A stretch of 4,106 bases of DNA from the IMG/VR virus record IMGVR_UViG_2740892211_000015, positions 1-4,106 of that record, one strand, 5' to 3'. Below are positions 3,901 through 4,106 of the stretch, piece after piece. A program made the translations under genes and the position numbers. The notes under the pieces are model-generated. The model saw nothing but the letters and a program-made list of their open reading frames with translations. It ran no database searches and had not been told where the DNA came from. Position 1 is the stretch's first letter; the number at the start of each line of letters is the position of its first letter. This DNA is from a virus. Taxonomy: Duplodnaviria > Heunggongvirae > Uroviricota > Caudoviricetes.

Positions 3901-4106
3901 TAATACGATACCTGCGTAATAATTGATTATTTCTCGTGGTTTGATGGCGTACACACATGTCGTGATAAACCTCATGTAGATGATAATTATTATCATTTTC
4001 GTGGGTCCTTTCCGGCGATCCGACAGGTTACGGGGCGGCGACCTCGCGGGTTTTCGCTATTTATGAAAATTTTCCGGGATCCATGTCCGGTTTCTCTTCA
4101 AGTTAA
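3901..4106 (+). other. cos: Lambda-type cohesive-end site region: cosQ-like sequence about 4005-4025, cosN 12-nt overhang GGGCGGCGACCT at 4033-4044, and the start of cosB
   Basis: The segment GATCCGACAGGTTACG|GGGCGGCGACCT|CGCGGGTTTTCGCTATTTATGAAAATTTTCCGG matches the lambda right-end/left-end junction as I remember it. Sequence after about 4073 diverges from lambda. The Nu1/terminase small-subunit gene would begin beyond the window. Confidence 0.85.

Follow-up and report, generated by a model that had tools for sequence, protein, structure and literature searches.

A lambdoid prophage cos site in which a lambda-identical cosN and I2 spacer probably adjoin a distinct, TCCGGTT-class cosB

The cos sites of lambda and its relatives have been described as a series of functional segments. 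The group with 12-nt 5' cohesive ends includes lambda, 434, phi80, 21, N15 and Gifsy-1. cosN spans 12 + 2 + 2 bp (PMC9026076), I2 is a functional segment of ~33 bp (bp 18–50) between cosN and cosB (PMC4856287), and the 7-bp cosQ is highly conserved (PMC4669245). In lambda, the cosB boxes, CGTTTCC(T/G)TTCT, lie at bp 53–64 (R3), bp 109–120 (R2, inverted) and bp 154–165 (R1), and a 3-bp change in the spacing between cosN and R3 is deleterious (PMC9026076). The boxes of phage 21 read C(A/G)TGTCGG..CT, and bp 56 and 59 are critical for discrimination between lambda and 21 (PMC4669245, PMC9026076). Lambda-type cohesive ends are combined with other cosB and TerS specificities in N15/Monarch and Gifsy-1 (PMC4669245), an arrangement that the present locus resembles: N15 has a simple cosB with one R3 (bp 48–59) and an unrelated recognition helix (ISVQAFDKW), and Gifsy-1 has CAGATCC(G/T)TTCT boxes with a lambda/21-like TerS. 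Lambda, 21, N15/Monarch and Gifsy-1 are the cosB/TerS types named in the Feiss papers (PMC4669245, PMC9026076). Terminase and cos are not discussed in a paper on lambdoid mosaicism (PMC9836094).

Here, we analyse a stretch of viral DNA of 4,106 nucleotides (hereafter the window), which is the right end of a lambdoid prophage; the cos finding concerns its last 206 bases. The genes of the window are the C-terminus of a SASA/NanS-type esterase, a class II holin, a YdfR-family ORF, a lysozyme, an Rz-type spanin, a PerC-family regulator and a YlcI/YnfO-family gene, and a non-coding stretch then runs to the window end. We consider it highly probable that positions 3901–4106 are a lambda-like prophage cos, in which the universal core is joined at bp 46 to a distinct class of cosB that belongs with a diverged Nu1-family TerS. 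The coordinates of its parts are collected in Table 1.

Table 1. Parts of the cos site in the last 206 bases of the window (bp, chromosome numbering from the first base of the cohesive end)
Feature	Window position	Strand	Remark
cosQ/R4 block (CGGGTCCTTTCC homologue), packaging-termination subsite	4002–4013	+	GGGTCCT at 4003–4009
cosN: GGGCGGCGACCT (4033–4044) and 2 bp flanking each nick site	4031–4046	.	identical to lambda, phi80 and phage 21
I2 spacer, A/T-tract between cosN and cosB (bp 18 to ~49)	4050–4081	+	lambda-identical to bp 45 (window 4077)
Mosaic junction, first base unlike lambda (bp 46), I2/R3 boundary	4078	.	identity run ends at 4077
R3-equivalent putative TerS-binding box CATGTCCGGTTT, bp 50–61	4082–4093	+	sole cosB box inside the window
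Start of A/T-rich R3–R2 spacer, I1-like region	4094–4106	+	candidate IHF site (bp 72–84) runs past the window end

The original prediction had placed a lambda-identical 12-nt cohesive end at 4033–4044, and GGGCGGCGACCT is found exactly there, within a cosN that is predicted from sequence. Direct alignment with lambda (the DE3 copy, L002) gave 100% identity over chromosome bp 1–45 (window 4033–4077), which comprises cosN and the I2 spacer. The match to the right of the cohesive end had thus been foreseen correctly, but not its length, which is 33 nt (4045–4077) rather than ~28; likewise, the departure from lambda in cosB is real, but the first differing base is 4078 and not 'about 4073'. The GGGATCC quoted in that connection starts at 4076, and its first two G's are still common to lambda's GGTTT. 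The lambda cosB sequence that had been given for comparison (GGTTTAAGGCGTTTCCG) is correct. The expected likeness over ~130 nt to the left, including the cosQ area, was also confirmed: the alignment of 3901–4032 to the right end of lambda has 112 matched, 11 mismatched and 11 gapped columns (84% of all columns, 91% of the aligned bases), the window carrying a 7-nt insertion and agreeing exactly over the last 16 nt, and similarity at ~89% reaches back to window 3691 by megablast. The 45-nt exact match together with the conserved left flank rules out a chance match to lambda. Compared without gaps, the 29 bases past the break agree with lambda at only 6 positions and with phage 21 at 7.

The arrangement of the remaining subsites is lambda-like: cosQ precedes the nick by ~30 bp, and cosN is separated from cosB by an I2 spacer. 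We take the exact 7-bp cosQ to be GGGTCCT here. The cosQ block is the counterpart of the R4 box of phage 21 (annotated at 136–147 of M81255), and GGGTCCTTTC is present in every comparator from six genera and also in Gifsy-1. Since the lambda-identical block consists of cosN and I2 as the latter has been delimited (PMC4856287), the break falls at the I2/R3 boundary. A GGATCC (BamHI) site at 4078–4083, right at the junction, could have pointed to a cloning artefact; this was rejected, as the sequence occurs in hundreds of natural genomes and in IMG/VR contigs. A minus-strand ORF at 3841–3996 (51 aa, MIIIIIYMRF...) that overlaps the cosQ-proximal region was dismissed as spurious and is without annotation in RefSeq genomes.

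Positions 3901–4106 recur without a mismatch in at least 30 complete E. coli genomes, O103:H2 12009 and O121, O45 and O145 strains among them, and at ≥99% identity in 174 records. Over the full 4,106 nt, the best relative is O145:H28 RM12761 (97%), and an IMG/VR contig (L064) is 99.4% identical over window 1392–4106 (2.7 kb). In RM12761, L064 and the 100% relatives the sequence past the window end continues identically. The classes were counted by megablast of equivalent 303-nt queries (bp 46–348) against 5,426 complete E. coli genomes. The class of the window, hereafter the TCCGGTT class, occurs in 1,167 of them (1,860 places), the phage 21 class is rarer (754 genomes), and the lambda class reaches 4,012, a figure inflated by the defective DLP12 nohD remnant. 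The class is also carried by five sequenced PhiR12 phages (cosB 97.5%, TerS 99.4% identical), whose records list laboratory hosts and are not permuted to start at cos; no source paper for these phages was found in the literature, PMC12502783 being a different study. In strain 12009 the right arm of the prophage is unlike that of the window until ~130 nt before cosN, and an IS3-family element lies inside a Rha-family regulator gene ~0.8 kb upstream of cos (L001 7130–8343).

The window reaches no further than bp 74, and relatives were therefore used to read R2, the third box and terS. In these, which are identical to the window over 3901–4106, CATGTCCGGTT(T) boxes lie in direct orientation at bp 50–61 and inverted at bp 108–118 and 137–148; both inverted copies are perfect, and a degenerate direct copy, CATGACCGGTTT, is found at bp 145–156. 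These positions parallel those of R3, R2 and R1 in lambda and in phage 21 as annotated in M81255. The 18.2-kb locus contains ATGTCCGGTT three times (0.04 expected), the copies falling in one 97-bp interval, and no shuffle out of 200 attained this number. Variation in 13 distinct sequence variants touches 2 of 43 box positions, compared with 21 of 64 spacer positions (Fisher p = 5e-4), and the R3-equivalent box is invariant in all 13 while the spacers vary; the putative boxes are thus under visible constraint. Across genera, a direct R3 and an inverted R2 are conserved features. For the third box, E. coli, Klebsiella and Enterobacter have it inverted, in the sense of R2 (L001 9269–9288, bp 137–156; L129; L135), the only direct copy being degenerate, and several Salmonella-type loci lack it, terS there beginning ~40 nt past R2. 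In E. coli it forms a near-palindrome, AAACCGGACATGACCGGTTT. A full-text search for the CATGTCCGGTT box in a phage context returned none, only unrelated primer and plasmid matches, much of the relevant literature not being open access.

Beside an A/T tract between R3 and R2 lies a candidate IHF site, TTTCATATAGTTA, on the minus strand (L001 9204–9216), with two mismatches to WATCAANNNNTTR; it is on the same strand as lambda I1 and within 2 bp of its position, and IHF may take part. Over the whole scan, the IHF consensus gave 149 matches against 151 expected, which is no better than chance, and the consensus C is lost in one variant.

Other loci with the same core show where the cosB classes part from one another. 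A scan of IMG/VR for the exact lambda cosN core yielded 120 contigs, in which the following cosB has a lambda-type R3 in ~84, is of the TCCGGTT class in 26 and of the phage 21 class in eight, and represents a fourth type in one. When the non-window-class contigs are taken together with the lambda and phage 21 reference records, all 95 loci of other classes diverge from the window class at bp 42–48, and 84 do so at exactly bp 46. The break point is bp 46 in 84 of 85 lambda-class loci, bp 47 in the 21-class and bp 48 in the contig of the fourth type (L041, IMG/VR UViG_2648501784_000004). The 400 nt that precede cosN in the window match L041 at 99.8% identity, and one 21-class and one lambda-class locus at 96.2% each; L041 is moreover 99.9% identical to window 2181–4079 and then has a different cosB and TerS. 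Left flanks of 96–99.9% identity are hence joined to four cosB classes at bp 46–48, from which it follows that exchange at this place is recurrent, and the recombination breakpoint that had been proposed is borne out by both the 95 loci and the switch in L041. The fourth cosB type of L041, at bp 46–200 after cosN, has the boxes GCATGTCAGTTCT (R3), inverted GATGTCGTTTCT and TCATGTCGTAACT and a 21-like TerS, and may be a sub-specificity within the phage 21 group.

The TCCGGTT-class cosB and TerS are also found behind other cohesive ends. Citrobacter loci (L133 and L134) combine them with the N15-type cohesive end GGGCGGCGTCCG, four loci from Salmonella or metagenomes (L131, L132, L139 and L140) with the Gifsy-1-type GGGCGGCAGCGT or GGGCGACGCGCT, and an Enterobacter locus (L135) with yet another. 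Type of cosN and class of cosB therefore assort independently in other genera too. The junctions lie at the edge of the common block and could reflect a crossover inside the block or the joining of heterologous ends via identical cohesive termini.

An alternative without recombination would ascribe the lambda identity of cosQ–cosN–I2 to strong purifying selection, these sites being read by a conserved large subunit, in a lineage that has diverged throughout. The ungapped core common to all classes, approximately −30 to +45 in more than 120 loci, does coincide with the functional subsites cosQ, cosN and I2, and the large subunit is only 66% identical to gpA, which indicates an old and diverged head module. 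However, the 99.9% identity to L041 extends over 1.9 kb of mostly non-cos DNA and yet ends in a different cosB and TerS, flanks at 96% identity lead into lambda-class and 21-class cosB alike, the ~89% identity to lambda runs 340 nt left of cosN, well past cosQ, and in Salmonella and Citrobacter the same cosB follows different cohesive ends. We judge this alternative to be very unlikely, and exchange at the I2/R3 boundary is the reading that we retain. The mosaic module that had been foreseen is accordingly present, but it is no one-off: it belongs to a widespread class that is neither phage 21-type nor N15-type.

The small terminase subunit was likewise read from relatives. Its gene is GTG-initiated, starts at bp 196 and encodes 169 residues. 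The Pfam profile Phage_Nu1 (PF07471) matches the L001 protein with 67.9 bits against a cutoff of 30, over residues 49–150 only (profile 62–163), and BLASTP aligns residues 73–164 with lambda Nu1 at 46% identity and nothing N-terminal of them. In a tblastn search of ~50,700 phage records, full-length matches were limited to the five PhiR12 phages (99.4%), Pseudomonas phage LPPA33 (43%) and Aeromonas phages (32–35%), and phage 21, N15, phi80, lambda and Gifsy-1 align only from residue 59–73 onward. The C-terminal two thirds of TerS thus match lambda Nu1, and the N-terminal winged-helix DNA-binding domain is very diverged. As is typical of the Nu1 family, this domain is a MerR-like winged helix-turn-helix with a predicted DNA-binding role; in the hhalign register its wing is ~5 residues shorter than that of lambda. 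The putative recognition helix reads RQLRRLQK, compared with RTIQNWQE in Nu1 and RTIERWQS in gp1. PDB sequence searches with TerS alone and with a 19-sequence profile gave no significant match and nothing to the Nu1 DNA-binding domain, so that the homology of the N-terminal part is based on hhalign and fold evidence. RppC of an E. coli PICI is among the best structural matches to this domain; the fold-search E-values are weak (0.2–2) because the query was the full-length protein.

Set against lambda, the locus has an identical cosN and I2 (bp 1–45) and a conserved cosQ block, and the layout that follows is also alike, with a direct box at ~bp 50–60, an A/T-rich spacer, an inverted box at ~bp 108–120 and terS near bp 190–196. 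TerS is of the Nu1 family (PF07471), and TerL has both gpA domains and is 66% identical to gpA end to end. There are also differences, modest ones where the architecture is concerned. The boxes are CATGTCCGGTT and not the lambda CGTTTCC(T/G)TTCT, which together with the Nu1 recognition helix marks lambda packaging specificity; the distance from cosN to R3 is shorter by 3 bp; the third box, apart from its degenerate direct copy, is inverted, whereas R1 is direct in lambda and phage 21; and TerS has 169 instead of 181 residues, with an N-terminal domain that neither BLAST nor the Pfam profile could align. When the boxes are aligned by their cores (CGTTTCC in lambda, CATGTCG in phage 21, CATGTCC here), the TCCGGTT class has the phage 21 base (G) at the equivalent of bp 56 and the lambda base (C) at that of bp 59, and the right half of its box (GGTT) is like neither.

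Phage 21 is the classic alternative packaging specificity, and the divergent segment could be taken for a phage 21-type cosB with the known specificity of that phage. The two share the cohesive end, bp 1–45 are 91% identical (41/45), the left half of the box, CATGTC, recurs in phage 21 R2 and R1 (CATGTCGG), the direct R3 and inverted R2 (bp 108–119) are laid out alike, and with gaps 4078–4106 matches phage 21 at 60% and lambda at 54.5%. This reading is likewise very unlikely, since both cosB and the recognition helix of TerS differ. The box departs from that of phage 21 from position 7 onward (CGGTT against GGnCCT), with another register and R3 shifted by 4 bp towards cosN. gp1 is a close, full-length relative of lambda Nu1 (52%), but TCCGGTT-class TerS matches it in the C-terminal part only, from residue 64 (39.8%), and at the residues aligned by hhalign to the lambda/21 specificity positions 20 and 24 it has R and K where phage 21 has E and S. 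The left flank of phage 21 is only 62% identical to that of the window, its cosB and gene 1 recover by megablast a separate set of 754 genomes as against 1,167, and the two types form distinct clusters in the viral-contig sample.

The other described systems fare no better as a match. The simple cosB and unrelated helix of N15/Monarch and the boxes of Gifsy-1 are not those of the TCCGGTT class, and direct comparison with the cos and TerS of phage 21, N15, phi80 and Gifsy-1 found none with the same boxes or the same N-terminal TerS domain. On the defining features compared, the predicted cosB and TerS of this class match no named type, and the original prediction of a cosB with a different Nu1-type specificity is supported by the boxes and by the strongly diverged TerS domain of the relatives: in alignments with lambda, phage 21 and N15, the lambda identity stops before cosB and the boxes are unlike all three. 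The E. coli PICI with Rpp (EcCICFT073) also joins a lambda-type cosQ and cosN to a non-lambda cosB at the same boundary, but it has no terminase of its own and a single R3-like site, whereas the relatives of the window have a full terS–terL–head operon and at least two inverted boxes. Least credible of all is that the locus is a relic, either a decayed prophage or a PICI-like satellite cos that needs a helper and lacks a cognate terminase in cis, for although the window reaches only 74 bp into the chromosome with the downstream genes beyond its end, E. coli PICIs pair a lambda-type cosQ–cosN with unrelated cosB (PMC6739421, PMC9026076) and an IS3 element is inserted nearby in O103 strain 12009, terS starts at bp 196 in each relative examined and is followed by terL and by genes for portal, protease, decoration and capsid, all intact, so that inspection of the terminase operon in the closest relatives showed no decay, the upstream window is a complete lambdoid lysis cassette and not a PICI layout, the boxes are visibly constrained, and sequenced phages carry the TCCGGTT module.

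A further line of evidence comes from the joint inheritance of boxes and TerS. Each TerS relative at 60–80% identity, from Klebsiella, Salmonella, Citrobacter or Enterobacter, comes with a box of TCCGGTT core at the R3 position and its inverted copy ~56 nt further downstream, although the surrounding DNA and even the cohesive end differ. In all, the core occupies the R3 position in ten loci from five other genera, including unassigned metagenome contigs; across six genera, the boxes go with the type of TerS. In the Pseudomonas phage LPPA33, whose TerS is 43% identical, the TCCGGTT core is found just upstream of terS; cosN and an inverted box copy were looked for in this phage and none was identified. 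The LPPA33 sequence (L007 120–160) is TTCCGTTTCCGGTTCCGGTTGG, with tandem TCCGGTT cores that precede terS, and its TerS begins MATQIEVAKHLDLSDRQVRNL. The tandem cores suggest that recognition of the core is older than the divergence of enterobacterial from Pseudomonas phages.

Within the class, TerS residue 20 co-varies with box position 4, Arg occurring with G and Asp or Asn with T. A prediction of this pairing that was written beforehand held in five of five new lineages, and the aligned positions of lambda (N21, T) and phage 21 (R21, G) fit it as well. Since the Arg and Asp/Asn forms are also unlike at other places in the domain, the pattern establishes a linkage between domain subtype and box subtype rather than proving a residue–base contact, and it may reflect two sub-lineages that inherit a tightly linked DNA-binding domain and cosB. 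In Klebsiella P0010 (L129), the C-terminal half is nearly that of the E. coli TerS, and the N-terminal DNA-binding domain is of the Asp20 subtype and occurs with CATTTCCGGTT boxes. This make-up implies that terS contains a mosaic joint too, the second of the module, where its DNA-binding domain meets the part that binds TerL. The Feiss laboratory reportedly joined its lambda–21 and lambda–N15 hybrids at the same place within terS.

From these data a mechanism can be proposed for the probable lambda-like cos. A large subunit of the gpA type would cut, and terminate packaging, at the universal core cosQ–cosN–I2 (−30 to +45). The N-terminal winged helix-turn-helix of TerS would bind the direct box (C)AT(G/T)TCCGGTT at bp 50–61 as well as the inverted copy ~58 bp downstream, across an A/T-rich and probably bent spacer, and would thereby hold the large subunit in place for the nicking of cosN, the role that Nu1 has at R3 and R2 of lambda (for the anchoring mechanism, see PMC4669245, PMC9026076, PMC4856287). 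A point against this mechanism is that R3 lies 3–4 bp nearer to cosN than in lambda or 21, given that a 3-bp change of this distance is deleterious in lambda (PMC9026076). As boxes and recognition helix are unlike those of lambda, 21, N15 and Gifsy-1, the class most likely has its own packaging-initiation specificity. Termination may still occur at any lambda-type cosQ–cosN, and partial cross-recognition by a 21-type TerS is conceivable, given the CATGTC common to the box and phage 21 CATGTCGG. The I2/R3 boundary is, in this view, a recurrent exchange site among co-resident lambdoid prophages. The mechanism would thus be an ordinary lambda-like one, with a common cutting and termination site and a phage-specific TerS–cosB anchor, in a common and apparently unstudied specificity class.

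We advance a broader proposition more tentatively, and lean slightly against rather than towards it: that TCCGGTT boxes and MATQxEVAxHL-type TerS jointly make up an experimentally unrecognised specificity group, with two sub-specificities, a residue–base rule and a preferred exchange point at I2/R3. The sub-specificities may be ATGTCCGGTT with Arg20 and AT(T)TCCGGTT with Asp/Asn20. If this is true, then together with lambda (Asn21, T) and phage 21 (Arg21, G) it would provide a simple residue-to-base rule for Nu1-type winged helices, and exchange at I2/R3 would let co-resident EHEC prophages swap whose DNA is packaged. The cosB–TerS specificity selects the DNA on which a lambda-like terminase begins packaging. 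It hence governs how far the many lambdoid prophages of pathogenic E. coli package one another's DNA, how defective prophages and satellites are mobilised, and lateral or specialised transduction. The experimental framework consists of lambda, 21 and N15, and the TCCGGTT class is present in about a fifth of complete E. coli genomes, its hosts including O157:H7, O103, O121 and O145 strains and ATCC 25922. Its natural variants of box and recognition helix form a series for the study of how Nu1-type winged helices read DNA. For annotation, the signature is a lambda cosN, a direct (C)AT(G/T)TCCGGTT at bp 50–61 and an inverted copy ~58 bp downstream.

Several observations concern the window upstream of cos. 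Embedded in the Rz-type gene (2272–2739), in the +1 frame, is an ORF at 2492–2677 (+) with a lipoprotein signal (MKLCVLMLPLVVSAC...), which is most likely an Rz1-type outer-membrane spanin nested in the inner-membrane spanin gene. The PerC-family regulator (3205–3519, +) and the YlcI/YnfO-family gene (3601–3825, −) lie between the lysis cassette and cos; PerC homologues of EHEC prophages and PICIs have been reported as activators of the LEE island (PMC6092414). The tract at 3040–3150, upstream of the PerC-family gene, is extremely T-rich. Finally, a G+C-rich hairpin followed by a T run (AAAACCCCGTTTGTTGGCAGCAAGCGGGGTTTTGTGTTTT) at 2020–2062, ~85 nt past the lysozyme stop codon, resembles an intrinsic terminator, placed midway in the late operon.
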